A DNA stretch of 54,971 nt from an uncultured Lentisphaerales bacterium. GTDB lineage: Bacteria > Verrucomicrobiota > Kiritimatiellia > RFP12 > JAAYLN01. The notes below the pieces were generated by a model that searched no databases, had not been told where the DNA came from, and worked only from the letters and a program-made list of their open reading frames with translations. Made by a program: the position numbers and the translations under genes. Numbering within the stretch: the first letter of the stretch is position 1; each line of letters opens with the position of its first letter. The stretch lies in the NCBI GenBank assembly GCA_964592855.1, contig CAZQKI010000003.1, forward strand, positions 1,273-56,243, given 5' to 3'. This document shows positions 4,107 to 51,896 of this stretch, piece by piece.

Positions 4107-6920
4107 ATGCAAAACAGCAGTCAACTGGTCTTGGCTTCCATGCTCGTCTTGTTCAGCTTCTTCGGCCTTCCGGGGCAAATGCGCGGGGCGGGCGTTACGG
4201 TCGTCTCCGAAAATTTCAACGCGCTGGGCACCTCGGCGACGGCTGCTTTGCCCGGCGGCTGGAAGGTCGATGGCCAAACAACGACGGCTCGAAGCCCGGT
4301 CTCCCATGCCGCTGCGGGCACGGCCACGACCCAGCAAGCGACGGGTGGAAATCCCACAACATCCGGCATCTACAATTTCGGCAGCGATGCATCGGACCGC
4401 GCCGTCGGCTGGCTCGCTACCGGAACCGCCTTCAAGAACTGCAATCTCTATGTCTCATATGTCAATAGCGGCGCCGTTGCCATCGACCATTTCACAGTCT
4501 CCTTCACCGGGCGGAAGTTCAAGCACAATTCCAATGCCGCCGGCTTTTCGCTGCGCCTGTTCACCTCCACCGACGATGCGAACTGGACGGAGGTTGCCGC
4601 CGGGCGCTTGACCTGGACTGTCGACGAATCGACGCTGTCCCCGAAGGTTGTCGTCGACGCCCTCGTGCAGCAGACGTTGGAGCCGGGGCAGACTCTCTAT
4701 TTTGCCTGGAACTACTGCGTGACGACCGGCACCACCACCTCGTATGCGCAGGGTCTGGGTGTCGACAATGTCACGATCACGGCCTATCCCGTTGAGGCGG
4801 ATGCGCCGGCGGTTTACGTGTCGACCAACGCGTTGAGCGGCTTTTCCGCGATCATTGGTGCGCCCTCGACGGCTCAGTCCTTCAGCTTCACCGGCAGCAA
4901 CCTGACGGCCGAGGTGACGCTGACCGCGCCGGACGGCTTTGAGCTTTCGTGGGACGGCAGCACCTATGCCCCCAGTCTCACGAATGCCAACAGCGGCACC
5001 ATCGCCCCCCGCTCCGTCCAGGTGCGCCTGGCCGCGGCCGGTTCGGTCAACGACAACGTGGCCGGCAACCTGAGCCTGGCCGGTGGCGGACTGCTCTACC
5101 CCGTGAGCCTCGCGCTGACAGGAGCCGTGCTGCGCGACAGGTCCGGCGATACCTTTTGCGAGGATTTCGAAGCCGGAAGCAAAGCCACGTATGCCTCCAA
5201 TGACGTCACCTGCGCATCGGGTCGATGGAGCCTCGACAACATGCTTCTGGGCACGGGCGTCAACGACAAGAAGCACGACACCCAGGCGGTCCGCGGCTAC
5301 GGCACGGTGACTATGCTGTTCGACAAGACCAATGGCGTGGGCCAGATCAGCATCCATCATGGCATGTATGGCACGGACAGCGCAGCCGGCGTGGCGTGGA
5401 CGCTCTTGGTTTCGCAGAACGCCGGCAACACGTGGACGGCCTACGCATCCGCGCCGCAGGCGCCTGATTCGACGTTGCGGGAGGTTGTCTTTGAATCGGT
5501 CAACCTGCCGGGTTCCGTCCGCATCAAGGTTGTGGTATCCGGCGGATCATCCACCAAGCGCGTCAACTTCGACGATATCTGCATGACCGACTACATTGCG
5601 CCGGTGGTTTCGGCTCTGCCGGCGGTGCTGAATCCGTTTTCCGTGCGTCTGCAGGTGCCGGCCGTCCCCTCGGCGCCACGAACCTTCGTCGTCTCGGGGC
5701 TCAACCTGAGCAACGTGGTTGTCGTCGCGGCCCCAGCGGGATTTGCCGTCTCCCGTGAAAGCAACGCCGGCTATGCCGACTCGCTGACGCTGCCGCAGAT
5801 GAATGGCGTCGTCCAGAACACGACGATCCACGTCCGCCTGACGGGCGCCGCTTCGGGCAGTTTCGCGGGGAATGTCGTCGTATCGAGCTCCGGCGCCGCC
5901 CCGGTGAACGTGGCGGTCGCGGGCGAGGTGGTCGACAACCTGCGTCCGGTGCTGACGGGTCTGCCCATCGCGACGAACACGCTGGCGAACCATCGGATCG
6001 AGCTCGAGGTCCTGGCCTCCGATACCGATGGCTCGGTCGCGGATCTTGCCGTGTCGAGCGTGGACATCCCTGGCGCTTCCGCCGGACTCGACGTGCAGAT
6101 CGAGGGCGGCGCACGGCGCGGCGTCTGGTCGTGGACGCCGTCGCAGGCGGGAACCCACACCGTGACCTTCACCGCAACTGACAACGAGGGCGGCATCACC
6201 GCGTGTACCGTGACGATTGTCGTGGCGCCGGAGTGGATTCTCGCCGTCGCCCCCGGCAAGACCTTCCGCCAGTCTTTTGACGGCATCGGCACGAATGCGG
6301 CAGCCCCGCTCCCGGCGGGGTGGAAGGTGGAGAAGCAAGCTTCCGTCCGGACGGTCGGCTCCTTTGCGGCGGCGCTCCAGGCGACGGAGAAAATCGGCGG
6401 CAACGCGTTGGCTTCGAATGCCCCAAATGGTATCTACAACTTCGGCGCCGGCGACGAAGCCACGGCGTCGGACCGCGCCGTCGGTTTCCTCAGCAGCAGC
6501 AGCGACACCAAATCGGGATCCCTGATGGTTTGCCTGGTGAACCGTTCAAAAGATCCCATCCCCGGGTTCACACTCGCCTTTGATGTGGAGAAGTACCGGT
6601 CGGGCACGAACGTCAATGGGTTCGCCGTCCAGGTCTACGCCTCACCCGACGGCGAAACCTGGAGCGAAGCGGGGCCGGCGGCCCGCGTGTCCTTCCCGGC
6701 CGATGCCGTGACGGACGGCTACAATCCGGCGCCGGGGCCGGTGGCGACGGCAGCGGGCGGCGTGAGTCTGGGCAAACTCCGGCCCGGCGAGTCGCTCTAT
6801 CTGGCCTGGAACTATTCCGTTGCCGGAGGTACCTACACCGCCTATGCACAGGCGTTGGCGATCGACGACATCGTCATCAAGGCCGAAGCGTCTCCGCAAA
6901 CCGTGTTGATTGTGCGGTGA
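4107..6920 (+). CDS. Secreted modular beta-rich protein (duplicated terminal domain, Ig-like/cadherin-like domains) with short C-terminal motif PQTVLIVR
   Basis: 937-aa ORF with SD GAGGGG and a signal peptide. N- and C-terminal domains are homologous (LPxGWKV...GIYNFG...SDRAVG...LYxAWNY...YAQxLxxDxxxI). Two SNLxxxVxxxAPxGFxxS Ig-like repeats; SDTDG...WTP...TFTATD cadherin-like domain. Confidence 0.8.
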   Translation: MQNSSQLVLASMLVLFSFFGLPGQMRGAGVTVVSENFNALGTSATAALPGGWKVDGQTTTARSPVSHAAAGTATTQQATGGNPTTSGIYNFGSDASDRAVGWLATGTAFKNCNLYVSYVNSGAVAIDHFTVSFTGRKFKHNSNAAGFSLRLFTSTDDANWTEVAAGRLTWTVDESTLSPKVVVDALVQQTLEPGQTLYFAWNYCVTTGTTTSYAQGLGVDNVTITAYPVEADAPAVYVSTNALSGFSAIIGAPSTAQSFSFTGSNLTAEVTLTAPDGFELSWDGSTYAPSLTNANSGTIAPRSVQVRLAAAGSVNDNVAGNLSLAGGGLLYPVSLALTGAVLRDRSGDTFCEDFEAGSKATYASNDVTCASGRWSLDNMLLGTGVNDKKHDTQAVRGYGTVTMLFDKTNGVGQISIHHGMYGTDSAAGVAWTLLVSQNAGNTWTAYASAPQAPDSTLREVVFESVNLPGSVRIKVVVSGGSSTKRVNFDDICMTDYIAPVVSALPAVLNPFSVRLQVPAVPSAPRTFVVSGLNLSNVVVVAAPAGFAVSRESNAGYADSLTLPQMNGVVQNTTIHVRLTGAASGSFAGNVVVSSSGAAPVNVAVAGEVVDNLRPVLTGLPIATNTLANHRIELEVLASDTDGSVADLAVSSVDIPGASAGLDVQIEGGARRGVWSWTPSQAGTHTVTFTATDNEGGITACTVTIVVAPEWILAVAPGKTFRQSFDGIGTNAAAPLPAGWKVEKQASVRTVGSFAAALQATEKIGGNALASNAPNGIYNFGAGDEATASDRAVGFLSSSSDTKSGSLMVCLVNRSKDPIPGFTLAFDVEKYRSGTNVNGFAVQVYASPDGETWSEAGPAARVSFPADAVTDGYNPAPGPVATAAGGVSLGKLRPGESLYLAWNYSVAGGTYTAYAQALAIDDIVIKAEASPQTVLIVR

Positions 6921-20060: not shown

Positions 20061-20123
20061 GGTCACGGCGAGCGTTTGACCGACCGTCGCGGGCGGGCAA
20101 TACGCTCCGCCGTGTTGTTCGGC
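20054..20123 (-). mobile_element. Integron attC site (downstream of brnA)
   Basis: Minus strand reads GCCGAAC...GTTGGCG, 70 bp. Hairpin CACGGCG/CGCCGTG, AGCGT/ACGCT, TTG/CAA with two extrahelical bases on the R''-L'' arm. Confidence 0.8.
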
Positions 20124-20413
20124 AATGCTTCCGCCCCTGACGTTCCGCGCTCTGCTTTGATGCCCCACGCAAGATAGAGTTTGGCAAGACTCTGGTAGGG
20201 CACATCACGTTTGTTCGCGAGGACTTTCAGATCGTCCAGCATACCCGCCGGCAGGCGGATTGAGATGGATCGCAGGGTCGGTCGCAGGTTAGGAAACGAC
20301 ACCCGTTTAGCGGCCTTGACATTGAAGTAGTCCAGCGGGGAGTGGTTAGCCCAGAACTCCCTCTCTTCGTCTTCTGTCTGGAACACTGGTCTAGTCTTCG
20401 TTTGCGTGCTCAT
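20063..20413 (-). CDS. brnA: BrnA/CopG-family antitoxin
   Basis: FQTEDEEREFW and SISIRLP...LK.LA.KRDVPYQSL ribbon-helix-helix. Overlaps the toxin gene; the stop codon lies inside the attC. Confidence 0.85.
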   Translation of the reverse strand: MSTQTKTRPVFQTEDEEREFWANHSPLDYFNVKAAKRVSFPNLRPTLRSISIRLPAGMLDDLKVLANKRDVPYQSLAKLYLAWGIKAERGTSGAEALPNNTAERIARPRRSVKRSP

Positions 20414-20699
20414 AGAATTCGCGCTCCCTTCGGTTCATATCTCGTGCGGAAATGATTCGAATTAAACTGCCTCTCGGCGTATAGACGACAACAAGCCTCC
20501 GCCCCAAGTCGGTCTGTCCGAAGGCAGCAAACCTATCCTCGGCTGCAGAATGCTTCGGATCATCCAGGATCACGAGCGGTTCATTGAAGAAGACCTGTTC
20601 GCACTCAGAAGCATGAACCCCATGCTTCAGGTTCTTCTCCTTGTTGCCGGCATCCCAGTCAAATCCGCTGGCATCCAAGTATTCGCCTGTCATGGACAT
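20391..20699 (-). CDS. brnT: BrnT-family ribonuclease toxin
   Basis: GFDWDAGNKEKNLKHGV...EQVFFN...HSAAEDRF..FG...LVVVYT.R...IRIISARDM. Start may be 20693. Confidence 0.92.
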   Translation of the reverse strand: MSMTGEYLDASGFDWDAGNKEKNLKHGVHASECEQVFFNEPLVILDDPKHSAAEDRFAAFGQTDLGRRLVVVYTPRGSLIRIISARDMNRREREFYEHANED

Positions 20700-25687: not shown

Positions 25688-25940
25688 GGTCTTTCAATAA
25701 TGGATCGGAACAAATATAGTAGCAGAATTACGCCCCTTTGCCCATCTAAAAGCGACATCTAAAAGCGGCACTGTCCAAACCAACAGGCGGGCAGCGGCAG
25801 GAAACCGTCGTGCCGGCAGCAAGTTGGGCGTTGAGCGTTCAGTTTGACTTTTGCCCCATCCCCGGCATAATGAACGCCGACCTTGGCCCCGGAACGTATC
25901 CGGGATGGCCAACGGGACACGAGTGAACAGGAATCGTCCG

Positions 25941-39700: not shown

Positions 39701-42700
39701 CTTCATCGTGCCGCCGGTCGGCATCTCGATCGTGAAGACCGCAGGCACTGCACCCGACGGCGGCGTCTATTGGACGCTACCCGGCACCCCCGTCACCTAC
39801 ACCTATCGCGTGACCAACACCGGTGAACTGGCGATCGTGCGAATGACCGTGAGCGACGACAAGCTCGGCCTCGTCGGCATGATCGACGGGCCGCTGGCGC
39901 CTGGCGCCAGCACCACGCTGACCAAGGCTTCGTCCGCCCTCTCTGCCGGGGTCACCAACGTCGGCTCCGTGGTGGGGCATCCCGCCAGCTCCGGCGGGCG
40001 TGAGATTCCCGGCGCGCCGCCCGTGCGCGACGACGATGACGCGATTGTCCATATCTACGCCTCCATCGGCGACCTGGTCTGGTACGATGTGAACCGCAAC
40101 GGCATCCAGGATGCCGGCGAAGCTGGCGTCGGCGGCGTGCGGGTGGTTCTGTACGATGGCGCCGGCGCGCCGATCGCCACCAACACCACGGCGGCCAACG
40201 GCCGGTACCGGTTCAACGGACTCCTGCCCGGCGATTATTCTGTGGGCTTCACGACTCCGGCTGGCTATCTGCTCAGCCCGAACGATCAAGGCGCGGACGA
40301 CGCCAAGGACAGCGACGCGGACCTGGTCACCGGACGCACCGTGACCACCACGCTGGTCGCAGGCGAGTACGACTCCACGTGGGACATGGGCCTCTGGAAC
40401 CTGGCGTCCATCGGCGATACCGTCTGGTATGACGTCAACCGCAACGGCATCCAGGATGCCGGGGAGACGGGCGTCGCCGGCGCGACCGTGACGCTTTACG
40501 ACGCCGGCGGAGCGGTGGTTGCCACGACCAACACCAGCGCGACTGGCTTCTACACCTTCACCCGGCTTATGCCGGGCAACTACTCCCTGGGATTCGTCCC
40601 ACCGACCGGCTACCTCTTCAGCGCCGCGGATCAGGGCGCCAACGACGCCAAGGACAGCGACGCCATCCCCGCAACCGGGCGGACGATCGCAACCACGCTG
40701 AGCGTCGGCGAGAATGACATGACGTGGGATGCCGGCCTGTGGCGCCCCGCATCCATCGGCGACTTCGTCTGGTACGACGCCAACACGAACGGTCTGCAAG
40801 ATATCGGCGAAGCCGGAGTCGCCGGTGTTCTGGTCACACTCTACAACGGGCTGGGCCAGGTGGTGGCCACAACCAACACTGACGCCGCCGGCCGATACGG
40901 TTTCATAAACCTGGTTCCTGGCGACTACTCGGTCGGTTTCGCCCGTCCGACGGACTACCTGTTCAGCCGGCGCGACGCGGGCGGGGACGACACCGCGGAC
41001 AGCGACGCCGATACGACGACCGGACGGACCGCCATCACCACGCTGGCGCCCGGCGAGAATGATCTGACCTGGGATGCGGGCATGTACCTGGTCCGCGCAT
41101 CGATCGGCGATCGCGTGTGGCACGATGTCAACGCCAACGGCGTTCAGTATCCCGCCGAAACGGGCGTTCCGAACGTGGTCGTGAACCTCTTCCGTGCGGA
41201 CGGCAGCACGCTGGTCGGCACGACGAGCACCGATGCGAACGGACACTACGGCTTCCCGAACCTCGAGCCTGGCGACTACTTGCTCGCCTTCACCCCCCCT
41301 GCCGGCTACCAGATCAGCCCGCGCGACCAAGGCTCGGATGCATCGGACAGCGACGTTGATCCGATCTCCGGCCGGACGATTGCGACGACGCTCGCCCCGG
41401 GCGAGGATGATCTGACGTGGGATCTTGGCATCTACCGTCTGGCTTCCCTGGGCGACACGGTCTGGGACGACTCGAATGGCGACGGCGTGCAGGACCCGGG
41501 TGAACCCGGTGTGCCGAACGTGACCGTCACGCTCTATGGCGCAGGCGGAGCTGTACTGGCCACGATGCCTACCGACGCGAGCGGGAATTACCTCTTCCCC
41601 GGTCTCGTTCCCGGCGTCTACTCGGTGGGCTTTGCCCTTCCGGCCGGATATGCCTTCACGTTGCGCGACCAGGGCGGCGACGGCGCCGACAGCGACGCCG
41701 ATACCACCACCGGACGGACGATCACCACGACGCTTCAGTCGGGCGAGAACGATCTGACCTGGGATGCCGGCATCTACCGGCCGGTGAGCCTGGGCGACCG
41801 CGTCTGGCTCGACGTTGACCGCGACGGTGTTCAGGAAGCCGGCGAGGCCGGGTTCGCGGGCATCACCGTGACGCTCTACAACGCGGGTGGCAGCGCCATC
41901 AGCAACAGGGTGACCGATGTGAGCGGGAACTACTTCTTCGGTGGCCTGCCGCCGGGAACATACCATGTTGGATTCGCCGTGCCGATCGGCTACGCCCTGA
42001 CTGTGGCGAACCAGGGTGACGATGCCCTGGACAGCGACGCCGACCTCGTGACCGGCCTGACTCCTACGACCACGCTGCGCTCGGGGCAGAGCGACCTCAC
42101 GCTGGACGCAGGGATGTACCGCCTGACCGCCGATCTGGAGTTGACCAAGACCGCCACACGCGATTGCTTCCCGCCGAAGTGGACGATTCCGATATCGAAG
42201 GGCGAGCAATACGTGACGGGCGACTACTGGTTGCGGATCGAGAACAACCAGCCGAGCTTCGACGTCTGGGGACCGGGAAGCATGATGGCCGGCGTGGACA
42301 TCAGCCGCACCTGGCACCAGGTGGCCGGGCGCTTCACGCGCGGACCGGCGGCGTGGGGCCCGCACAAGATGGAGATCCTGGTGGATGGCGTGGTTGTGGC
42401 GACGAGCAGCCAATGGGGCACGACCGACACCAGTTCCGCCGCGCTCTTCCTGGGATCCTATCTTGGAACCCACTACTTCTACGCGGGTGCCATGGATGAA
42501 GTGCGCCTCTCGGGGACGGCCCGGAGCGACGCCTGGATGCGTACGAGCGTTGCGCAGCAGAACTCGCCATCGACCTTCCTGACCACGGGTGCCGAAGCCG
42601 CCGGCACGGTCTACGGCTATGAGAAGACGCTGACGGTTCAGGGCTCGGCCGTGGCCGGAGCGCTGACGGACTTCCCGGTGCTGGTGAGTCTGGTCGATGC

Positions 42701-44462
42701 CGACCTGGCCGCCCGCGTGGGCACGGCGGAAGGCTGGGACATCGGCTTCACGCTGCCGGACGGCACGCCGTTGGCGCACGAGGTCGAGCAATACTACGCC
42801 TCCAGCGGCACGCTCGTCGCCTGGGTTAAACTTCCCGCACTCGCCGCAGGGACGGATACGACCTTTGTGATGCACTACGGCGACGCCGCGGTCGCGGCGG
42901 CGACGGAGACACCGGCTGACGTCTGGGACGCCGATTTCCGCATGGTGCAACACTTCGAGGAGACGACGGGGCCGGTGCTGGACTCGACGGCCAATGGAAA
43001 CGATGGCGTCGTTTCAGGAGCCTGGTTCACGGCCGCCGGTTCCGCTGACGGCGCGTACTTGTTCGACGGCGTAGACGACCAGATTGAGGTGCCCGATTCG
43101 CCGAGCGTGCGGTTCGTGAACACGGACTTCACGATCGAGGGATGGTACGCACGCGAGCTGCCGCGCAAGGAATTCGTTGTCACGGTGACGAACCGCGGAC
43201 CGGATCAGGCGACGCGCGTGACGGTGTTGGACCCCCTGGGCACGACGATGGGCTACGTGACGTCCGATGCATCCCAGGGCACGTACGACCCAGCGACGGG
43301 TATATGGACGGTCGGAACAATGGATCTGAATACGGTCGCACGGCTCGTGCTGGTGGTTGATCCGCTGGCCGCGTCCGTCGTGAACCGGGCCGAAGTGGCG
43401 ACATCCGATGCCGCCGACCCCGATTCGACGCCGGGCAACGGCGTCGTCGGTGAAGACGATCAGGCGCAAGCGTCACCGCCAGGCTGCGGGTCGACAGAGC
43501 CTCCTGTTGGTCCAGGCGTTCCGGACAGTCCGGCAATCCAGATTGTCAAGGTGGCAGGTACAGCGCCAGACGGGACGGTTCTGACCGTTGCCAGCGGTGC
43601 GAACGTGACCTATACCTACACCGTGTACAACATCGGCAACGTGACACTGACGGGCATCACCGTAACGGACGACAAGCTCGGTGCGGTTGGCGTCGTGCCG
43701 ACCCTCTTGATCGGGCAGTCGGCCGTGCTGACGGCCGTGGCCTCCAACGTCACCGCCGATGTCACGAATGTGGCCACTGCGGTCGGCAACTGCGGCGCGG
43801 CCCAGGCGACCGACACCGACAACGCGGTGGTGGTCATCGGGACTGGCGGATCCTCTGGTGGCGGCGTGCCCGCTATCTGGGATCGTGCTGATTTTGCGGT
43901 GACGCACCAGGAGTTCATCGGCCCTGCGCCGACCGTGGTGGGCGAGGTTTTTGCGGTGCGGGTGACGGTTGCGAACCGAGGCCAGATCGCCGGCAACGCC
44001 GGGAACCTGGGCGTCTTCGTGGCGCACGCGGATCCGGTGGTGATCGGCGAGGCCGGCCAGGCGCAGGTTTCCATCGGCGTGCTCCAACCGGGGCAGAGCC
44101 GTGCCTTGGAGATCGGCGGACTGGTGGCCACGGAACGTGGCACGCAGTTGCTCCGTTCCTATGCAGACATCGGCGATTTGACCGACGAATGGAGCGAAGG
44201 TGACAACCAGTTGACGCTGATGTACCAGATCAGTCCGATTTTCATGCAGATTCAGCCGGTGGCGGGAAAGATCGAGTTGTCCTGGAACAGCTACTGGGGC
44301 GACCGGTACATTGTTTACCGCGCCGCGGGACTGGGGGCACCGTACGTGCCGCTGGCGACGGGCATCGAGGCTACGCCGCCGACGAACGGGTTCATCGACA
44401 CGAACCCGCCGGCTGGCGGAGCGTTCTACAAGGTCGGCGTGCAACCGTGGGCAGCTTGGTAA
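36795..44462 (+). CDS. Giant secreted surface protein/adhesin: DUF11/isopeptide-type Ig domains, 7 SdrD B-like repeats, permuted DUF2341-LamG insert, CARDB-like domain, C-terminal FYKV domain
   Basis: 2555 aa with a signal peptide. Repeated xxK(S/D/W)...Y.....N.G.....D.LP domains; GDxVWxDxNxxGxQD repeats; DFPVLV...HEVE...AWVKLP; FDGVDD, DEVRLS. Confidence 0.92.
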   Translation: MSRTEVGSVGLVLSRAVLSVLLLGWASVASAGLEVTKSIQNGLTTVPSGQTFTYKLQYRAASTTTDFFGATLTDILPPGIEYQSLVGTVHVASFAYTAATRTLRVVFIDPLPAGSTGEILVNVRFPQGVTLPGTVATNTATMAAINAPPAVAPPVTITATAANRATATKSLVGGSVPLDQNVTYTVSANNSQTAGALNATALTLLDNLPTGAVFVAASGGGVYDPGSHTVTWTAASLSAGSTFSRTLTIMYPSSAFALGAKATNDLSVTLTPLGGVPTNLTARTVHNIVAPVANSTFTKDVNANYVYEGKTASKTWTFALQNTGNVPLYDVVVTDAIPAQVQVTSINSGLSSGTPPGLNDPIGVFYKTTLNGTWTNTPGSPYPGSASVTVPVSTLGLAPGEFITDLKWEFGTLPVGYSIGSLQFASTILTNGWDGQPVLAGQTITNVGRLAYTDFTGPKTKSDPATIPVKTARPVAELAKSASPSTVNDGSVTTFTIRLTNRSEAAQPLIDPVLADLLDAKLVYVPGSWTVASKPAGAPDPLFETIPNFTGSRTLLRWRWDGAASYSLPANSYIEMRFRANIPAGTIYGGINNDLTLAKWSNTALDTASATGITDTFDLDGDGITAETVYYRRTALTVTARASMDSVKWVRGELDADWSKYPNSGLTVPGGRADYRLIVSNTGNVPIRNAAILDILPTLDDTGVIDLSQRDTEWKSALAGPVVAPPGVTVYYSRELDPTRLDFDPSGPPGSEPAYWSTNPPATLIEARALKFVFTGIVIQPGASYELTWPMRAPVATPTDGRVAWNSFGYYGTRTDSSTLLLPSEPIKVGIAVQPDTNAVYGDRVWYDTNRDGVQDAAETGVNGIRVRFYEDSGAGGFPDGVVNTNVDRYVGYTITADDFNGQAGYYLFPNLDRGHYYAVFDIPPGYEVSPKDAGTDDAQDSDVDALTGAAPITWLDDEETDLTWDLGLFIVPPVGISIVKTAGTAPDGGVYWTLPGTPVTYTYRVTNTGELAIVRMTVSDDKLGLVGMIDGPLAPGASTTLTKASSALSAGVTNVGSVVGHPASSGGREIPGAPPVRDDDDAIVHIYASIGDLVWYDVNRNGIQDAGEAGVGGVRVVLYDGAGAPIATNTTAANGRYRFNGLLPGDYSVGFTTPAGYLLSPNDQGADDAKDSDADLVTGRTVTTTLVAGEYDSTWDMGLWNLASIGDTVWYDVNRNGIQDAGETGVAGATVTLYDAGGAVVATTNTSATGFYTFTRLMPGNYSLGFVPPTGYLFSAADQGANDAKDSDAIPATGRTIATTLSVGENDMTWDAGLWRPASIGDFVWYDANTNGLQDIGEAGVAGVLVTLYNGLGQVVATTNTDAAGRYGFINLVPGDYSVGFARPTDYLFSRRDAGGDDTADSDADTTTGRTAITTLAPGENDLTWDAGMYLVRASIGDRVWHDVNANGVQYPAETGVPNVVVNLFRADGSTLVGTTSTDANGHYGFPNLEPGDYLLAFTPPAGYQISPRDQGSDASDSDVDPISGRTIATTLAPGEDDLTWDLGIYRLASLGDTVWDDSNGDGVQDPGEPGVPNVTVTLYGAGGAVLATMPTDASGNYLFPGLVPGVYSVGFALPAGYAFTLRDQGGDGADSDADTTTGRTITTTLQSGENDLTWDAGIYRPVSLGDRVWLDVDRDGVQEAGEAGFAGITVTLYNAGGSAISNRVTDVSGNYFFGGLPPGTYHVGFAVPIGYALTVANQGDDALDSDADLVTGLTPTTTLRSGQSDLTLDAGMYRLTADLELTKTATRDCFPPKWTIPISKGEQYVTGDYWLRIENNQPSFDVWGPGSMMAGVDISRTWHQVAGRFTRGPAAWGPHKMEILVDGVVVATSSQWGTTDTSSAALFLGSYLGTHYFYAGAMDEVRLSGTARSDAWMRTSVAQQNSPSTFLTTGAEAAGTVYGYEKTLTVQGSAVAGALTDFPVLVSLVDADLAARVGTAEGWDIGFTLPDGTPLAHEVEQYYASSGTLVAWVKLPALAAGTDTTFVMHYGDAAVAAATETPADVWDADFRMVQHFEETTGPVLDSTANGNDGVVSGAWFTAAGSADGAYLFDGVDDQIEVPDSPSVRFVNTDFTIEGWYARELPRKEFVVTVTNRGPDQATRVTVLDPLGTTMGYVTSDASQGTYDPATGIWTVGTMDLNTVARLVLVVDPLAASVVNRAEVATSDAADPDSTPGNGVVGEDDQAQASPPGCGSTEPPVGPGVPDSPAIQIVKVAGTAPDGTVLTVASGANVTYTYTVYNIGNVTLTGITVTDDKLGAVGVVPTLLIGQSAVLTAVASNVTADVTNVATAVGNCGAAQATDTDNAVVVIGTGGSSGGGVPAIWDRADFAVTHQEFIGPAPTVVGEVFAVRVTVANRGQIAGNAGNLGVFVAHADPVVIGEAGQAQVSIGVLQPGQSRALEIGGLVATERGTQLLRSYADIGDLTDEWSEGDNQLTLMYQISPIFMQIQPVAGKIELSWNSYWGDRYIVYRAAGLGAPYVPLATGIEATPPTNGFIDTNPPAGGAFYKVGVQPWAAW
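40062..42122 (+). repeat. Six tandem SdrD B-like (Ca-binding) domain repeats, about 345 bp each
   Basis: Unit starts at 40065, 40410, 40755, 41103, 41448 and 41790; a seventh copy starts near 39315. Confidence 0.9.
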
Positions 44463-44544: not shown

Positions 44545-44787
44545 ATGAAGAAGATGGTGATTTTGCTGGCGTTGGTTTCCGCAGTGTCGCTGCCCGTGAT
44601 GGCGGGGGAAGCCTGCTGCGGCGCCAAGAAGGCGGAGAAGTCGGCCGGAACAAACACCTGCGCTGTGGCGTGCCAGGCGGTCTGCAAAGGCGTGAAGAAG
44701 TCTGCCTGCACTGAAGCCTGCAAGGATGGCTGCGTGTGCGCGAAGCTTGCTGCCGAGAAGGCTGCCGCCGAGAAGGTCGCGAAGTAG
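44545..44787 (+). CDS. Small secreted Cys/Lys/Ala-rich protein
   Basis: 80 aa, MKKMVILLALVSAVSLPVMA signal peptide, 9 Cys, SD AAGGA, followed by a terminator. Confidence 0.8.
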   Translation: MKKMVILLALVSAVSLPVMAGEACCGAKKAEKSAGTNTCAVACQAVCKGVKKSACTEACKDGCVCAKLAAEKAAAEKVAK

Positions 44788-44850: not shown

Positions 44851-46422
44851 TCAACGGAACATAATCAGTGTTCCGCGCGTCGGTGGCAGGCCGAAATACG
44901 TGTGGTTGCTCGCAGGTTCGTAATAGGCCCCGACACGCGCCCGTTGAACTTCGGTAAGGCCGGGGGCGATCCATGTCAGCTTTCCAGCAGTCTGGAGCGC
45001 GTTCAGTTGCGTGGTCTTGTTGCCGACCATCCGCAGACCCCAGCAGGCACGGATTGGATCGATCGGAGGCGCCATAAAACTCAGGCGCATCCGGCCCCCG
45101 TTAGTGACCGTCAGTGACCCGGTCATATCAATTCCCGAACAGACGCCATTGATCTGGTTGGTGATGACGGCAAAACCGGTGGTGTAGGGGTCTCCCAGCA
45201 GGAGATCGCCCGCCACGGTAAACAGCGTGTTGCTCAAGGACAGCAAAGCCGATCCGGCTCCCGTTGTTGCGTTCGCGCTCACGTTCATCTGCAGGCTGGT
45301 ACAGGAGGCGCGCCCGGCGGGCAGATAGACCTTCCCGTGATTCGAGACCCCGCCGATCTTGACCTGGCCGTTCACGTCCAGCGCCGCCAGTGTCGCGTTT
45401 CTCAGATCGAGTGTTCCATAGCGATGGTGTCCGTTCACCGCGACGGCAGAGACCCGAAGCCCGCTTACATAGGCCTGGAAGGTCCCGATGCCCGGCCCGA
45501 GCGTCATTACCACAGGATCCAGCATCCCGTTTTCGGCGACCGAGAGCGTCCCGGCCCTCGTGGATTCGCTTCCCATCTTGAAGGTCACGTTTCCCGGAAA
45601 ACCCTTGATGGTGTTGCCGCTGCCGTCGTGGCACCGGAACCCCCCGTAGGTGTAGCTGAAGGTATCTGCAATCACCAGGTCCCTCAACAGCGAATTCGTG
45701 CCGAGGTCCAGAATGCCCGGCGAGGCGGAGCTCGTCCCTCCCATGCGCAATGACGTGAAGGTGAGGTTGGTGACGTTCGGATTCACCTTCAGCATTCCGG
45801 AGGCGTCGTTGACTCCCAGCCGGGTCGAAGGTGCCTGAAAGCGATTGGTAATCGATCCCGAAACAACGGTCGCCGTACTGACATCAAGCAACCCCTTGGC
45901 CGCACCCCAGCCTTGCGCATCCTGAACGCCGATATCAATTGCCGACACGTTAGCCAGATTGAACACGCCACCCTGCACGATGAGACTCGCATCGACCGTC
46001 ACGTTTCGATCCGTGCTTCTATAACCCAACCGGATGGCCGTGGGGGAGACGTTGCCGACCTTCAGCATGCCGGAGTTCTTCACCACGACTTGGACGGCGG
46101 GCTTGCGGTAAGACGCGCTGAGGTAGCCGCCGTTCAGGATCAGGCTGGCTCCGGGCGCGATCTGAAGCACGTAGGAAGCGGCGTTGGTGTTCTCGTAGTA
46201 GAGGCCGGCCACCGTATAGACCGTGTCGACGACGCTGGTTCCGACCTTGACGTCGTTGAACTGGGCCGATTGGGCCGCAGTAGGCTTGACATCTCCCACC
46301 CAGTTCACAGCGTTGGTCCAATGATGGCCGCCGCTGTCGTCGTCCCAGACAACGGCTTGAACAGGTCCGCCCATACACACGATCACCAGCCCGATTGCGA
46401 CACATCTGATTCTGTCAGTCAT
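44851..46422 (-). CDS. Secreted beta-helix/passenger-like protein with C-terminal PPTRGTLIMFR motif
   Basis: 523 aa from ATG 46422 (SD GGGAGG), signal peptide, W....WTNAVNW...P N-terminal motif, Gly/Ser/Thr/Asn-rich beta-strand repeats, no beta-barrel. Confidence 0.8.
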   Translation of the reverse strand: MTDRIRCVAIGLVIVCMGGPVQAVVWDDDSGGHHWTNAVNWVGDVKPTAAQSAQFNDVKVGTSVVDTVYTVAGLYYENTNAASYVLQIAPGASLILNGGYLSASYRKPAVQVVVKNSGMLKVGNVSPTAIRLGYRSTDRNVTVDASLIVQGGVFNLANVSAIDIGVQDAQGWGAAKGLLDVSTATVVSGSITNRFQAPSTRLGVNDASGMLKVNPNVTNLTFTSLRMGGTSSASPGILDLGTNSLLRDLVIADTFSYTYGGFRCHDGSGNTIKGFPGNVTFKMGSESTRAGTLSVAENGMLDPVVMTLGPGIGTFQAYVSGLRVSAVAVNGHHRYGTLDLRNATLAALDVNGQVKIGGVSNHGKVYLPAGRASCTSLQMNVSANATTGAGSALLSLSNTLFTVAGDLLLGDPYTTGFAVITNQINGVCSGIDMTGSLTVTNGGRMRLSFMAPPIDPIRACWGLRMVGNKTTQLNALQTAGKLTWIAPGLTEVQRARVGAYYEPASNHTYFGLPPTRGTLIMFR

Positions 46423-46466: not shown

Positions 46467-47405
46467 TCACGACAACGCTTGTGCCGGGAGCAGCAGGCGG
46501 GCGTAGAGGTTGAAGAGCAACGGCCCCCAGAAAATCCAGATGACCGCGGCAGCGGCGATGAAGGGGCCGTAGGGGATGCGTCCCTGCAACTGGCGCTTGC
46601 CGGAGACGATCAGCGCGACGCCGACGATGGAGCCCAGGAAGGAACTGCAGATGATCGTGAAGAGGACGGCCTTCCATCCCAGGAAGGCGCCCACAGCCCC
46701 CATCAGCTTGACGTCGCCGAAGCCCATCGCCTCCTTGCGGAAGGCCAGCGAGCCCAGCGTGGCGATCAGCCAGAGCGAGCCGAATCCGACGCCGCAGCCG
46801 ATCCCCGAACGCATCAGGGCCGTCAGCGGATCCAGCGTGTTGTGCATGAGCGGAACGAGCGGGCTGAGCGCCAGTCCGAGGATCATGCCGCCGATGGTGA
46901 CGCGGTTGGGGAGAATGTAGTGCTCCAGGTCGACAAAGGTTCCCAGCAGCAGTCCGAAGAGGGCGAGCCAGTAGACGGGAACGAGCCAGTGGGTGCTGAG
47001 CGGCACGAGCTGGAGCAGGACGCCTCGCGTGGGGGCGGCCGCAAGCATGGCATCCGGCTTCCAGAGATTGGCCAGATCGGGCTGGAGCAGCGCCGAGGCG
47101 TATTGCATCCAGACGACGAGGAACAGCAGGGCGGTGAGCAGTTCGACCAGCAGGTAGCGGAAGGCGATGGGGGCCTGGCAATAGCGGCACTTGCCCCGCA
47201 GCAGGATCCAGCTGAGAACGGGCAGGTTCAGATACCAGGGGATGGGCCGCTCGCAGGAGCAGCAGCGGGAGCGTGGATGGATGACCGAAAGGCCCAGCGG
47301 GATCCGGTAGATGCAGACATTGAGAAAGCTCCCCATGCAGGCACCGAAAAAGGCGACAAAGGGCGTGCAGATCAGGACGAGCGCGGCGAGATCGGTGTTA
47401 GACAT
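46467..47405 (-). CDS. pilD: Type IV prepilin peptidase (A24A)
   Basis: GSFLNVCIYRIP, SRCCSC...RGKCRYC zinc site, FVDLEH and GFGDVKL catalytic Asp motifs, IPYGPFI. Confidence 0.93.
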   Translation of the reverse strand: MSNTDLAALVLICTPFVAFFGACMGSFLNVCIYRIPLGLSVIHPRSRCCSCERPIPWYLNLPVLSWILLRGKCRYCQAPIAFRYLLVELLTALLFLVVWMQYASALLQPDLANLWKPDAMLAAAPTRGVLLQLVPLSTHWLVPVYWLALFGLLLGTFVDLEHYILPNRVTIGGMILGLALSPLVPLMHNTLDPLTALMRSGIGCGVGFGSLWLIATLGSLAFRKEAMGFGDVKLMGAVGAFLGWKAVLFTIICSSFLGSIVGVALIVSGKRQLQGRIPYGPFIAAAAVIWIFWGPLLFNLYARLLLPAQALS

Positions 47406-47460
47406 GGTTCTGTCCGTTATAAACATGCTGTTTCCCACTCCCGCTCACTCGCCGGATGTG

Positions 47461-47484
47461 GGTTGCGGGCTCCGCCCGCACTAG
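47461..47484. repeat. REP-like palindrome GGTTGCGGG-N5-CCCGCA
   Basis: Third copy of the family also at 20952-20973 and 31886-31908; abuts the stop codon of the DUF2723 gene. Confidence 0.65.
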
Positions 47485-50400
47485 TAGCGCAAGCCGAGTC
47501 CGGTACCCGGACTGACGTTCGGGATCAACCCCTGCTGCAGCATCGGAATGGCCAGCTGACGCAACTGCGGATTGCCTTCGATGATCTGCAGGGCCTTCTC
47601 CTTGCCGAGCTCGATGGACTTGCGCAGCGCGGTCTGCGCGCGCGGGGTGTCGCCTTCGATGAGATAGAGCGTGGCCAGGTCGGTCCACGCCTGCCAGTCG
47701 CCGGGACGCTGCGCGAGGTAGCGTGAAAGCGGCGCAATCATCTTCTTGGATTCCTGTGCATTGGCATAGATGCGCGCGATGTTCAGGAAGAGGTCGGCGG
47801 GCGCGTTTTCGGGGATGCTGGCCATCACGACATCGATCGCGCGGACGGCGCCGGCAGGAGACTTGAGGCTGTCGAGCATCATTCCGAGTTCGTAGGCTTC
47901 GCGGACGGTCAGCTTGGGATTGTCGAGGCACGGGAGCAGCAGGTGCGCGGCGGCATCGGCGTTACCCATGTCGCGGTACAGGCCGGCCAGTTCCGTGGCG
48001 ACGGCGAATTCGGGAATCTGGCCGGGCTTGATCTGGCCGATCAGTTCGGCGATGCGCTTCTGCTTGTCACGAATATCGGTCACGAAATTCCGGAAGCCGA
48101 GGCCGCGGTCGTTGTTCGGATCGGCCTGGATGAAGAGGTCGATGATGTCGATGGCCTCGTCGTAGCGCTGCTGGCGGAGCAGCACCTCCTGCACCAGGCG
48201 GAAGTTGGCCTCGGGGCTGACGAAGTAAAGCAGGCGCGCTTCCTGGTAGGCGAGTTCGGCCTCGCGCAGGAGGCCGCGGGCGCCGTAAAGCCCGGCGATG
48301 GCGCTGCGCAGTTTGGAGAAGGATTTGAGCGCGACGACGTCGCGGCGGTAGCGGTCGTTGCGCGTGAGGCGGCGGACATACCAGTCCCAGAAGTCGAGGT
48401 CGTCACGAACGATGTTCGGCGTCAACGGGGCGGGGTCGTTGTTGATCTTCATGATCAGGCCGTGCGGGCTGAGATAGGGGTACATCCAGGGAATCACGTA
48501 GCTCTCCTCGATGTAGAAGGGGTGGCGGGCCTTGTTGTACCGGAAGATCATTTCGCAGAGGATGCCGTTGATCTCCATGACCCCAAGGGCGCCGCTGACC
48601 TGGACGCGGCCGTTTTCGATGACGAGGTCGGCGTTTTTGGGGCGATTGCCGCTCTGGACCTCCTCGACGTAGATCTGGAAGGCGGAGGCGCTTTCGTCGG
48701 GGGTGGGGATCCAGATTCGGTCGCCGTAGAGGTCGCGCATGACGCTCATGTAGGTGTTGTCGGCGAGCGCGTTCTGGGTGATGAGGAAGACATCCTCGCG
48801 GACATGCGCGGAGTAAATCATGTAGGTGGGGACGAAGCGCCCGGGGTCGGTGCCGCCGAAGAAGACGGCGTTCGGTCCCATGGCCGGGGGATAGCCGGGG
48901 TTGGGCAGGGGCTCTTCGTCGGCATCCAGCTCTTCGGTGATGGCGTCGGCGCCGCGGAGCTGGAAGTTGCCGAACTGCCAGCCGTAGTCGTGTCCGTTCT
49001 GCTCGGCGCCGCCGAACTCGAAGATCATCCGCTCGTTGGTGTAGTTCTGGTGAATCGGGATGAGCGGCAGCGCGAGCGTGAGCACGATGGCGATTCCCAT
49101 GGCGATGGCGGTGAATTGACGGCCGTGGCGGTCGGGTGCGCCAGCGTTCGAGTCCGGCGCGAAACGACGGGCCAGATTGGCGAGAAGCATGTCCAGTGTC
49201 GCCAGGGCGAAAACGAGGCCGTAGCCGATCCAGATGGCATAGAGTCCGTGTGACGAGATGAATTTGACCTTCTGGATGAAGGTGTCCTGGAGATCGCCCT
49301 TGGGGTTGGCCAGGACGATCAGGAGCACGCTCATCACCAGAAAGGCCGCCACGGTGGCGATGAGCCACTGTTGCGAGACATGATCGAGCGAGAAGTCGAT
49401 GATCTCGCGCTTTCGCAGATGATAGTGGAACAGGATGATCGTGGCGGCGAGGATCAGCGTCAGCACGACGGCGAAGAACGAGAGGCCGGCGGTTGCGCTT
49501 GTGGATATCCGGCCCCACTGTTCGATGACCTGCATGCCCGTCAGGCCACCGCTCCGGGCCTGCTGGTAGAGGAGCACGGCCTGAATGACTTTGAAGAGGA
49601 AGGCGAGCACGAAGCCCAGCACGCCGATCAGCGTCAGGCCGACGGTCAGCCATTCCGACCGGTTGTCCGACTGAAGGGTGCGGCGGATGACGCTGTCGCA
49701 TTGTCCCAGCAGGAGCAGGAGCCCCCCCACGCCGCCGATGAGGAGAATGCCTGCGATGAGGAGCTTGTCGATGCGCGAGGCGTCAAAAATGTGTTCGATG
49801 CTCCCCAGATGGCCGAGGAGCACGAATCCGATGGAGACTATCAAAAGGGCCAGCGACGCGTGCAGCGGACGGACGTTGGCCGACAGCGTCAAGATGCCAC
49901 CCGCCAGAAGGAGGAGCAGGGCCAGCCCCTTGAGCAGGCCGGCCAGCTGGTCGGAGACGGCGGCGGCGGCAACCCAGTGGTCGACGCTCCAAAGCAGGCA
50001 GGCCACCCCGAGCGTGACGATCCCGGCGAGCAGACGCGTTGTATTGAGCGAAGTCCGGTCCCCTCTTGAGCGCACTTGCCAGGCGGCAAAGGGGAGAAAG
50101 CCGAGCGGGGCCATCAGCAGGGTGAATTGCACGCGCAAGTCGGTGAAGTAGCCGCCCAGCTGCTGGAGAAAACGGGGGGCGAAGAGGTTGGTCGGGGCGA
50201 TCTTCTCGTACTGGCCGCGGGTGAGCGCGTGCTTGAAGCCCTCCCACGTCCGCGGATAGCCCCAGTTCATCGGGGGATTGCGGAGGTCCGAGACGATCGG
50301 CATGTAGATGTAGAAGGAAACGCCGAGTTCCGCCCCGACGACCGTCATGGCGACATTGCGTCCGTTCGGGAGCGTCAGCCAGGCCATGGCCAGGAAGACG

Positions 50401-51854
50401 AAGTTCAGCGCAGCGGGGACCCAGAACCACCAGGTGGAGGGATGCGTCAGCCCCAGCAGCGCACCCTGGCGGAGCAGTCCGTAGAGGGCCGCTTCGACGG
50501 CCACGGTGGCCGCCGCGAAGTAGATCCCCTTGGGCGTCGTCAGGCTCAGGGCGACGAGAAGGGCCAAGGCGAGCCCCACCAGCCCCAGATAGGGCGTCCA
50601 GACGAAGAGTTTCTGTCCCTCCTGGAGCATCGGTGCCGACGCGATGCCGATGTTTCCGGCGACGCCCAGCACGATCACGACGATGGCGCCGACGGCGGCC
50701 AGCGGGCCCCACTTGAAGGGGTCGTCCCAGCGCTCGCTGCCGAAAACGGCGCCCAGGCAGGAGATGCCGATGGCCGCCAGCACCAGTGCGGCGAGGGTGA
50801 TGTAGATTGAAGGGGCGACGAGCGGTGCCGAAAGCGTGCTCGAAACGGCGCCATTGGCGCTGAGCAGGTTGGCGAAGACGAGCAGGAGGCAACTGAGGGC
50901 GAAGCCGCCGCCCAGGATGCTCACGCCTGCTTGCCGGTGGTGCTGCGCCGACGCGAAGCGCTTCCGGAGACCCGGCCAGCAGCAGGCGAGGATCAAGACG
51001 ACGCCGAAGAGCGCCGCCGAGGCCAAGCAGAGCGCCGTGTTGGGCAGCTTCATTTCGCCGAGGAGCGGCGGGTGTTTGCCAAAGCCGGGCACGGGGTTCA
51101 TGGCGCCTAGCTTGAGCACGAGCGCCGTCAGCAGGAAGGGGATGCCGACGAGCAGGAAGTCGCGGAACAGGGCGATGTTGCGGAGGAAAATCACGACGAC
51201 GAGCGGCAGCGCGGCCAGCAGCAGCACCTGATAGTTGGTCAGGCCGAGGCCGAAGACAAAGGCCGTGATCCAGAGAAGCTTGTCGGATGGCTGGCGCATC
51301 CAGCGGTAGGTGAGCAGCATGACCAGCATCAGGAAGAAGGCACCGAGCGCGTAGACCTCGACGATCGTCGACTGCGACCACATGACCGGGCTGAATGCGA
51401 AGGCCAGGCTCCCTGCCACGCCCCCCGCCCAGCAGAGGATGTCTTCGCGGGAGCCATGGATGTTGTGCAGCGTCGTGCGGGTGTCGCGGAGCATGTCCGA
51501 TGCGGAACGCGTGATCAGCAACGCGGTGCAGCCTGCCGCCAGCGCGCCGAAAAAGGCGGAGGCGAGGGCGATGCTCCAGGCCGGAGTGGGCTGGCCGCGG
51601 AAGGTGACAAAGCTGAAGATTCGGGCGAAAAGCCAGGAGCACATCGTCCAGATGGGATATCCGGGGGGATGCGGCACCCCGAGATAATCGCCCGCCACCG
51701 CCAATTCGCCGGAATCTTCGAGCGTGACCGAAGGCCCAAGCGTGAAGAAATAGACGGCGAAGGAGATCAGCGTCGCGGTCCAGAAGGCCGACCAGTCGAT
51801 TCTACGGAAAAAGCTCCCGGAATGGGTCTTCTTGGTGAGGTCTATCGCATCCAT
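47481..51854 (-). CDS. DUF2723/TMEM260-like GT-C glycosyltransferase with C-terminal TPRs
   Basis: PSVTLEDSGEL...LGVPHPPGYP, WSQSTIVEVYAL, NPPMNWG, REDV, many transmembrane segments, TPR-like C-terminus. Start 51854 (SD GAGGA) or 51878. Confidence 0.88.
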   Translation of the reverse strand: MDAIDLTKKTHSGSFFRRIDWSAFWTATLISFAVYFFTLGPSVTLEDSGELAVAGDYLGVPHPPGYPIWTMCSWLFARIFSFVTFRGQPTPAWSIALASAFFGALAAGCTALLITRSASDMLRDTRTTLHNIHGSREDILCWAGGVAGSLAFAFSPVMWSQSTIVEVYALGAFFLMLVMLLTYRWMRQPSDKLLWITAFVFGLGLTNYQVLLLAALPLVVVIFLRNIALFRDFLLVGIPFLLTALVLKLGAMNPVPGFGKHPPLLGEMKLPNTALCLASAALFGVVLILACCWPGLRKRFASAQHHRQAGVSILGGGFALSCLLLVFANLLSANGAVSSTLSAPLVAPSIYITLAALVLAAIGISCLGAVFGSERWDDPFKWGPLAAVGAIVVIVLGVAGNIGIASAPMLQEGQKLFVWTPYLGLVGLALALLVALSLTTPKGIYFAAATVAVEAALYGLLRQGALLGLTHPSTWWFWVPAALNFVFLAMAWLTLPNGRNVAMTVVGAELGVSFYIYMPIVSDLRNPPMNWGYPRTWEGFKHALTRGQYEKIAPTNLFAPRFLQQLGGYFTDLRVQFTLLMAPLGFLPFAAWQVRSRGDRTSLNTTRLLAGIVTLGVACLLWSVDHWVAAAAVSDQLAGLLKGLALLLLLAGGILTLSANVRPLHASLALLIVSIGFVLLGHLGSIEHIFDASRIDKLLIAGILLIGGVGGLLLLLGQCDSVIRRTLQSDNRSEWLTVGLTLIGVLGFVLAFLFKVIQAVLLYQQARSGGLTGMQVIEQWGRISTSATAGLSFFAVVLTLILAATIILFHYHLRKREIIDFSLDHVSQQWLIATVAAFLVMSVLLIVLANPKGDLQDTFIQKVKFISSHGLYAIWIGYGLVFALATLDMLLANLARRFAPDSNAGAPDRHGRQFTAIAMGIAIVLTLALPLIPIHQNYTNERMIFEFGGAEQNGHDYGWQFGNFQLRGADAITEELDADEEPLPNPGYPPAMGPNAVFFGGTDPGRFVPTYMIYSAHVREDVFLITQNALADNTYMSVMRDLYGDRIWIPTPDESASAFQIYVEEVQSGNRPKNADLVIENGRVQVSGALGVMEINGILCEMIFRYNKARHPFYIEESYVIPWMYPYLSPHGLIMKINNDPAPLTPNIVRDDLDFWDWYVRRLTRNDRYRRDVVALKSFSKLRSAIAGLYGARGLLREAELAYQEARLLYFVSPEANFRLVQEVLLRQQRYDEAIDIIDLFIQADPNNDRGLGFRNFVTDIRDKQKRIAELIGQIKPGQIPEFAVATELAGLYRDMGNADAAAHLLLPCLDNPKLTVREAYELGMMLDSLKSPAGAVRAIDVVMASIPENAPADLFLNIARIYANAQESKKMIAPLSRYLAQRPGDWQAWTDLATLYLIEGDTPRAQTALRKSIELGKEKALQIIEGNPQLRQLAIPMLQQGLIPNVSPGTGLGLRY

Positions 51855-51896
51855 GTATTCGGAATCCTCAGCGGTCATAAAACATTAGAAACCAAA

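Follow-up and report, generated by a model that had tools for sequence, protein, structure and literature searches.

In a freshwater bacterium of the class Kiritimatiellia, two unrelated exported proteins encoded within a 54,971-nucleotide stretch of contig CAZQKI010000003.1 (the window) share a short C-terminal tail, whose genome-wide consensus is the ten-residue P-P-x-G-T-Φ-Φ-Φ-Φ-R-COOH (Φ = L, I, V, M or F). About 75–80 large Sec-exported proteins, roughly 2% of the genes in the genome, carry this tail, as do many more in related genomes. It has the look of a protein-sorting tag that is remarkably short and has yet to be described. By analogy with known signals and from its position, we read it as a miniature C-terminal sorting or processing tag without a membrane-spanning segment, with a probability of roughly 0.55.

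A shared ending and its frequency in the genome

The first carrier, P0001, is a 523-residue exported beta-solenoid protein encoded on the minus strand (44851..46422, translated from the Met at 46422), and the second is a 937-residue exported multidomain protein encoded on the plus strand (4107..6920), with Big_9 and weak F5/8 type C matches in Pfam. The minus-strand frame of P0001 ends in ...YFGLPPTRGTLIMFR before the stop codon at 44851–44853, and its tail, PPTRGTLIMFR (44854..44886), fits the genome-wide logo and agrees with the ending given by an earlier reading of the window made from its letters and translations (hereafter the sequence-only reading). The frame of the 937-residue protein (4107–6920) ends in ...AEASPQTVLIVR before the stop codon at 6918–6920, and its tail, EASPQTVLIVR (6885..6917), has Gln in place of Gly at position −7; here the sequence-only reading had the residues SPQTVLIVR right and placed their start, at 6894, three nucleotides late, the true start being 6891. 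It had also described the two proteins as unrelated, furnished with signal peptides and lacking an anchor, barrel or PEP-CTERM signal, and the results are in line with this. BLASTP between the two gave a best E value of 3.9, i.e., no similarity; both N-termini are hydrophobic and signal-peptide-like by a crude hydropathy score (MTDRIRCVAIGLVIVCMGGPVQAV in P0001, minus strand, 46351..46422, score 3.08; MQNSSQLVLASMLVLFSFFGLPGQMRG in the 937-residue protein, plus strand, 4107..4187, score 2.93; limits approximate in both); and Pfam and NCBIfam scans of the two found no autotransporter barrel, PEP-CTERM or type IX secretion system (T9SS) tail. Residues 1–40 of P0001 have a predicted local distance difference test score (pLDDT) below 50 in its AlphaFold model.

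No family was assigned to P0001 in the Pfam or NCBIfam scans, and its model has no fold match at E ≤ 0.001 in Foldseek, the best weak match being antigen 43 (E 0.02). Just five relatives were found in a collection of 5.8 billion proteins, with the endings GTVIMIR, GTVVVAR, GTLIMLN and, in one case, ADAVLFSFP. Two RNA libraries and two DNA runs gave contigs that carry the same 3′ end of the P0001 gene with no variants in the tail, one of the DNA contigs being independent and from another sample; the RNA-library contigs are not proof of transcription, as DNA carry-over is possible.

That just two examples are visible, as the sequence-only reading put it, holds within the window and not genome-wide, where dozens of frames carry the tail. 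The genome (G000; 5.16 Mb in 430 contigs, 64% GC) has 21,694 stop-to-stop frames with 100 residues or more, and the pattern T[LIVMF]4[RK] is terminal in 58 of them, compared with 0.22 expected from its internal rate (54 in 5,223,283 positions), an enrichment of approximately 260-fold, and all 58 have R as the last residue. A relaxed rule, [TSA] followed by four hydrophobic residues (at least three of them L, I, V, M or F) and then R, returned 79 frames, of which 74 are at least 200 residues long. While the final R of these 74 tails is required by the rule, positions outside the rule are conserved as well, with G at −7 in 61/74, P at −9 in 37/74 and P at −10 in 24/74. Across a crude set of 3,388 genes, 45 copies of G[TS]Φ4R are terminal and 4 internal, and no frame in the genome carries the motif with 1–15 extra residues before the stop. 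The residue following G[TS]Φ4 at frame ends is R in 55, Q in 6, N in 1 and L in 1, and never K. The regular expression of the sequence-only reading, T[LIVMF]{4}[RK]$, needs correction, as it allowed a final K that does not occur, left out the rare Q and N, and did not include the G that usually precedes the T. Variant tails ending in Gln (six frames, e.g., ...PSGTVMMIQ) or Asn (one frame, ...PAGTLLIVN) lie on contigs C50, C51, C100, C180, C212, C263 and C279.

In the DNA encoding the tails, the information lies in codon positions 1–2, with only 0.2–0.6 bit at wobble positions; the 30 nt downstream of the stop codons show no conservation, and TGA, TAG and TAA all serve as stop codons (37, 20 and 15 cases, respectively). 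This indicates selection on the peptide and not a DNA repeat, and the conservation of the tail is at the protein level. An origin in chance, in DNA repeats at gene ends or in faulty assembly would have to account for these features together with the approximately 260-fold enrichment, the 0–2 matches per genome given by a reversed pattern, and the independent DNA and RNA-library contigs that carry the same 3′ end of the P0001 gene, and such an origin, for which we found no evidence and to which we attach almost no weight, is effectively excluded.

Exported carriers and the tail as an appendage

With genes crudely called and signal peptides scored by a home-made hydropathy heuristic, 47/65 tail genes were signal peptide positive compared with 541/3,181 other genes (odds ratio 12.7, p = 5e-22), and most of the 18 negative tail genes are truncated at the edge of a contig or fall slightly short of the threshold. 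The enrichment among signal-peptide proteins for which the sequence-only reading had proposed its regular expression is thus strongly positive, with 58 terminal matches vs 0.22 expected and the odds ratio given above. Carriers are long (median 868 residues vs 383 for all genes), and the domains found by Pfam in 22 carriers scanned were Beta_helix/NosD, PATR (repeats in six of the 22), G8, Laminin_G_3, Ig, Calx-beta, CHB_HEX_C, Chlam_PMP and DUF1565, or none, with no autotransporter barrel family among them. After removal of the last 12 residues, BLASTP similarity at E ≤ 1e-3 was found in just 343 of 2,701 carrier pairs.

Genes within three positions of tail genes are of glycan-utilisation types. 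The largest neighbour family, with 66 genes genome-wide, is homologous to the DUF4838 proteins of the window, and 15 of these genes were observed beside tail genes compared with 4.7 expected (p = 3.6e-5). The two DUF4838 genes in the window are at 312–2993 and 25851–28334, both on the plus strand, and one copy lies two genes upstream of the gene for the 937-residue tail protein.

The tail is an appendage to the domains that it follows. The 937-residue protein carries its N-terminal domain a second time at the C-terminus (39% identity, E 2e-38), and the homology stops at ...IDDIVIKA, leaving the 11-residue EASPQTVLIVR outside the domain. AlphaFold models were obtained for P0001 (pLDDT 82.7) and for an unrelated NosD-like/choice-of-anchor-Q protein (pLDDT 85.1), and both are confident beta-solenoids in which the last 10–11 residues are coil. 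In P0001, this coil comes after the last strand and its last four residues have a pLDDT of about 52, while in the second carrier residues 517–527 (FMPAGTALIFR) have a pLDDT below 50. The alignments under the models are shallow (6 and 22 rows), and the models are supportive, though not decisive, of a tail that is predicted to be disordered and no part of a shared fold. The sequence-only reading had called the motif too short for a membrane helix, which agrees with the exactly four hydrophobic residues between Thr and the terminal Arg, and had likened it to a single beta-strand, which is at odds with the low-confidence coil in both models. If the tail were the last beta-strand of a shared C-terminal fold, the G-T-Φ-x-aromatic strand that precedes 15/74 tails could be its pairing partner, but the low-confidence coil (pLDDT below about 50) in both models, the placement of the tail outside the duplicated domain and the at least five different contexts that tails follow (38/74 being classed as 'other') make this account extremely improbable, and an integral fold element is likewise effectively excluded.

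The position taken by the tail is also the position of known sorting signals. The NCBIfam choice-of-anchor Q domain, matched in 2/22 carriers, stops 10–12 residues before the terminus, and a D/N-Φ-G-A-Y-E/G end, identified by motif, precedes 15/74 tails. Domains named 'choice-of-anchor' are those found ahead of different sorting signals. In 62 homologues of one carrier, several types of C-terminus follow the same ...GAYE(F/Y) end, including the tail itself (GTALIFR, GSALLVR), nine close variants (GMTLIVR, GSLFSIR, GTRILIR, GTFFLSR, VGLLLLLR, TIILLQ and others) and, in two homologues, a canonical PEP-CTERM with helix and basic cluster (P0020, ...GAYEYIPEPVLFINCYLLFIIYFFKKKRN, and P0028). The strict regular expression matched 3/62 of these homologues, and the variant endings were judged by eye. 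Roughly 25–29 of the 62 have an unrelated ending of the FYRVxV type.

A FYRVxV-like ending is also present in the window, where a 2,555-residue SdrD-B/DUF11/CARDB protein (36795–44462, plus strand) ends in ...GGAFYKVGVQPWAAW, and about 6–10 long frames in the genome end in this way compared with 2.1 expected. This ending could represent a second kind of C-terminal module, perhaps made up of the final strands of a domain like Fn3. In a relative, at locus L238 (G019:C2:959700-960300, locus positions 358–459), a gene ends in ...GCYEAAPVGTLVLLR and a stop codon, and a second tail, ...YRPGTLFLLR, also followed by a stop, lies 25 codons downstream in the same frame; it looks like what is left of a former 3′ end after a new cassette of choice-of-anchor Q and tail took its place.

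Distribution across genomes and candidate factors

The distribution of the tail was determined with a back-translated DNA pattern (GGN ACN NTN x4 MGN TRR) and its reversed form as a control. The pattern matched 49 times in its own genome (control 0). Of the 41 genomes of the same order, the own genome included, 36 had a match and 22 had at least five (up to 47), with 0–2 matches for the control, while family f11 had no match in 4/4 genomes and, in a larger sample, none in 14/15, the remaining genome having one. Outside the order, five of 138 genomes of the class had at least five matches (G095 29, G144 8, G041 6, G123 6 and G058 5), and outside the class the maximum among 201 genomes of the phylum was three matches, i.e., background level. 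In G095, which belongs to a different order and has a GC content of 58%, the contexts of the tails are the same, and their carriers include homologues of those from the genome analysed here. A single-contig genome of 6.1 Mb in family f6 gave nine strict matches. Contrasts between sister genomes were seen for G095 and G162, for G144 and G126, and for family f11 and the remainder of the order. The tail is therefore frequent in a single order of Kiritimatiellia, scarce in the rest of the class, and lineage-restricted. The tail-free f11 genomes G023, G030, G035 and G040 have 5, 16, 32 and 8 PEP-CTERM matches, respectively, compared with 0–8 elsewhere in the order, and their exosortases sit on a long branch of the exosortase tree.

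Candidates for a factor acting on the tail were compared for presence and absence in tail-rich (G019, G033, G095) and tail-free (G035, G162) genomes. All tail-rich genomes have an exosortase (PF09721), but this does not discriminate, being found in 40/41 relatives, including tail-free f11 (4/4), and also in G015 and G162. In the genome analysed here, the exosortase (Xrt) is fused to an EpsI-like domain and scores below every named Xrt subtype cut-off. The fusion keeps the invariant Cys197, Arg242 and His263, and all 13 relatives in which the strict pattern matched 14 times or more have it, as do G095 and G144; it was rejected as a marker of the tail on account of its presence in tail-free f11 and G015. 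The exosortase tree tracks genome families and not tail counts, and there are genomes in which 2–9 tail copies occur with unfused exosortases. Ten of the 40 exosortase-bearing relatives have tails and no TIGR02595 match at E ≤ 0.01 (33 tails in G009 and 18 in G005), and for this reason the exosortase stays a candidate, without strong support. In the EpsI-like half of L101 (G000:C114:12025-13713, minus strand), four Cys residues (C363, C368, C387 and C390), in the motif ...FCQNEQC...CPxCGG..., are invariant in 30 sequences and resemble a site of the zinc-ribbon type; the domain that holds them is expected to be on the periplasmic side. A separate 170-residue exosortase-like protein (contig C28) was rejected, being present in just 3/41 genomes.

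Other components of the envelope fared similarly. There are 5–7 secretin matches per genome in most relatives and 2–4 in f11 (G000 and G001–G040), unusually high numbers that suggest several type II or type IV pilus-like systems, but by orthologue assignment every secretin of tail-rich G095 has a counterpart in tail-free G162. Copy numbers of S41 peptidases form no pattern, with one each in G019 and G033 and three in tail-free G162. One of three Rce1-like (CPBP) proteases, when checked, was present in 100/151 genomes, f11 included, and missing in G019, and the unannotated barrel candidates L109 and L114 were found in 0/5 and 1/5 genomes, respectively. SprA_N (PF14349) had no match in the genome or in any of 14 control genomes, Slam (PF04575) had none in the genome with the controls silent too, and Omp85 is present in two ordinary copies.

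Directly upstream of the P0001 gene is a prepilin peptidase (A24) gene (46467–47438, minus strand), followed by a gene for a 1,465-residue TMEM260-like O-mannosyltransferase with C-terminal TPR repeats (47481–51878, minus strand). The latter, two genes upstream of the P0001 gene, was rejected as a discriminating factor, as it is present in 5/5 genomes; in G019, the TMEM260-like gene adjoins a secretin gene. A small plus-strand frame (44545–44787) between two large genes has a signal-peptide-like start and a Cys/Ala/Lys-rich sequence, MKKMVILLALVSAVSLPVMAGEACCGAKK.... The prolyl-tRNA synthetase encoded in the window has its best match, at 71% identity, in a Kiritimatiellia MAG. The window otherwise contains housekeeping and glycan-related genes, including the two DUF4838 proteins and an RND pump, and a BrnT toxin/CopG-type BrnA antitoxin pair is encoded at 20063–20699 on the minus strand.

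Known sorting signals and rival explanations

The tail had no Pfam or NCBIfam match in 22 carriers, whether scanned at full length (E ≤ 0.01, TIGR02595) or as the last 40 residues (E ≤ 10), and a full-text literature search, with supplementary lists outside its reach, returned no description of such a tail. The sequence-only reading knew of no characterised system for the motif, and this stands: no curated sorting-signal model tested matches, and none is described in the literature searched. In the excerpted part of the list of attributes of small C-terminal sorting domains given by Haft (10.1101/2023.06.07.544157), items 1, 2, 6 and 7 apply to the tail, which is terminal, occurs many times per genome, is found on signal-peptide proteins that are otherwise unrelated, and is replaced in homologues by other signals.

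Among the closest known systems is PEP-CTERM/exosortase (TIGR02595, PF09721). Both signals are C-terminal, present in many copies on signal-peptide proteins of diderm hosts, and built in the same order, from a Pro-rich signature through a small residue with Ser/Thr and a hydrophobic run to a basic end; they follow the same choice-of-anchor-Q end in homologues, and an exosortase is present in the genome. They differ in that PEP-CTERM has a helix of about 20 residues where the tail has four hydrophobic residues, and a cluster of 2–5 basic residues where the tail has one Arg; the P-P-x-G-T of the tail lacks the Glu of the Pro-Glu-Pro signature and has no TIGR02595 match, and exosortase/EpsI, present in all tail-rich genomes, is present in tail-free ones as well. 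True PEP-CTERM proteins are few in the genome, three to four (4 matches), and in these genomes they are small, about 170–350 residues.

The C-terminal domain of the T9SS (Por_Secre_tail, PF18962/TIGR04183) is likewise found at the end of large Sec-exported adhesins and glycan-active proteins that have no membrane anchor, and this signal is removed after outer-membrane transit. It is, however, a folded domain of approximately 70–100 residues as opposed to approximately 10 disordered ones, to which all conservation of the tail is confined, and neither T9SS model matched any of the 22 carriers scanned. Classical autotransporters (type Va) differ in having a C-terminal beta-barrel translocator, of which there is none in the tail carriers scanned. 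The outer-membrane beta-signal resembles the tail as a short hydrophobic C-terminal segment of exported proteins, but has an aromatic end and alternating hydrophobicity, whereas the tail has Arg after four consecutive hydrophobic residues. The barrel proteins of the genome itself end in F, Y or W (e.g., ...LRF, ...LRY), the usual aromatic beta-signal, indicating that the tail is not a local variant of it. The peroxisomal PTS1 (-SKL) and the CAAX box, both eukaryotic, are very short signals that need no membrane helix and act only when they form the very end of the chain, with its carboxylate free. Their likeness to the tail is one of functional analogy, as these are cytosolic systems with no sequence relation to it, and the one Rce1-like (CPBP) protease checked fails to track the tail.

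By analogy, the tag repeats in miniature the layout of known three-part sorting signals, with a signature, a hydrophobic stretch and a basic end, but it cannot span a membrane; with both the membrane segment and the basic cluster missing, it fits no known three-part signal. From analogy and position we infer a sorting function, cleavage, a surface destination and a dedicated factor, in the following way. The passenger would cross the inner membrane via Sec and have its signal peptide removed, after which a receptor or processing enzyme would bind the tail, which is flexible and must have its carboxyl end free, either in the periplasm or at the outer membrane. This binding factor would route the passenger to the cell surface or fix it there, and the tail would probably be removed at the near-invariant Gly-Thr.

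Several observations weigh against the tail being a sorting or processing tag. Two attributes of sorting domains are missing from it, as it has no membrane-spanning stretch and a single basic residue in place of a cluster. None of the components checked follows the distribution of the tail, the EpsI-like domain, for example, being present in 133/151 genomes of the class, and no envelope gene recurs beside tail genes in the neighbourhoods of 66 such genes in G000 and 20 in G095. Single linkage joins 59/74 carriers into one network via shared repeats, and part of the spread of the tail could therefore be paralogue expansion. The signal-peptide enrichment was obtained with the home-made heuristic described above, and the proposed localisation and processing are read from sequence and models. 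The suggestion of the sequence-only reading that the motif is a recognition signal for a lineage-specific outer-membrane machine is thus upheld in that the motif is shared, strictly terminal and lineage-restricted, and not in that a co-occurring component of such a machine was found.

One special form of the sorting-tag reading, contained in its probability, is that the tail is a miniaturised PEP-CTERM still cleaved by the exosortase of the lineage, with EpsI capturing the soluble substrate. A PEP-CTERM-like signal that lost its helix would be the most economical evolutionary story, and this form is consistent with the canonical PEP-CTERM found after the same choice-of-anchor-Q end in P0020 and P0028, with the shared order of elements, with the exosortase in 40/41 relatives, ten of which have tails yet no TIGR02595 match, and with the fused Xrt-EpsI, its Cys, Arg and His invariant, in the 13 tail-rich relatives, G095 and G144. 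The same enzymes are nevertheless found in tail-free f11 (4/4), G015 and G162, with EpsI in most of the class; 2–9 tails occur alongside unfused exosortases, and the exosortase tree follows families. The tail itself has no Glu, no helix, a Thr one residue out of register and no TIGR02595 match, and canonical PEP-CTERM proteins form a separate set of small proteins. We regard this form as rather unlikely, and that the factor reading the tag is the class-wide exosortase/EpsI system as having about one chance in three.

The main alternative to a sorting signal, and an unlikely one in our estimation, is a non-covalent docking strand: after general export, e.g., by a type II system, the tail would insert into a groove of a partner, a neighbouring subunit or the outer-membrane surface, and would thereby hold the protein in place or make it oligomerise. 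A free, flexible, hydrophobic tail with a polar end would suit such a role, as would the absence of a dedicated machine among the components checked and the enrichment of tail genes beside DUF4838-like genes. For Kiritimatiella glycovorans, Sec, Tat and type II systems are reported, and an excerpt of that report gives type II as the sole outer-membrane secretion route (PMC5148204), which, with the 5–7 secretins per genome, is also in keeping with docking after general export. On the other hand, the near-invariant Gly-Thr and the strict need for a terminal position are easier to explain by a site for an enzyme or receptor than by a generic sticky patch, an amphipathic strand does not result from four hydrophobic residues in a row, and there is no known partner. 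A C-terminal degron for a periplasmic tail-specific (PDZ) protease, serving quality control or turnover, is far less probable still. Tail-specific proteases recognise non-polar C-termini, and the genome has three S41 matches, but S41 copy number is independent of tails in the genomes compared, and a degron is hard to reconcile with a tail on 2% of genes, in one functional class, at the position that anchors occupy in homologues.

Returning to the sorting or processing tag, its broadest version would be a new diderm sorting pathway, in which a helix-free signal of approximately 10 residues has its free C-terminus read by an undescribed receptor or transpeptidase and passengers are taken across or onto the outer membrane; we put this forward tentatively, as possible though short of probable. 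To our knowledge, all small prokaryotic C-terminal sorting signals described so far have a membrane-spanning helix or a folded domain, and a strictly terminal ten-residue tag shared by dozens of exported proteins that are otherwise unrelated would represent a novel design and point to a new recognition factor. If such a pathway exists, its passengers would be the large adhesin-like and glycan-binding proteins from Kiritimatiellales glycan-utilisation loci, about 2% of the proteome. It would be a bacterial counterpart of terminal tags of the PTS1/CAAX type and would stand beside type IX secretion and PEP-CTERM as a further route, with its origin inside a single order.

Members of the Kiritimatiellales play a large part in the breakdown of complex glycans, including sulfated ones. 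Given that the carriers lie in glycan-utilisation loci and resemble surface binding and lytic proteins, the tag probably decides the display of the apparatus with which these organisms handle polysaccharides. The motif offers a short, portable tag for surface-display trials and a clean phylogenetic profile, being present, absent or expanded in sister genomes, with which the machinery may be found, and it provides a one-line rule to predict the surface proteome of an uncultured lineage.

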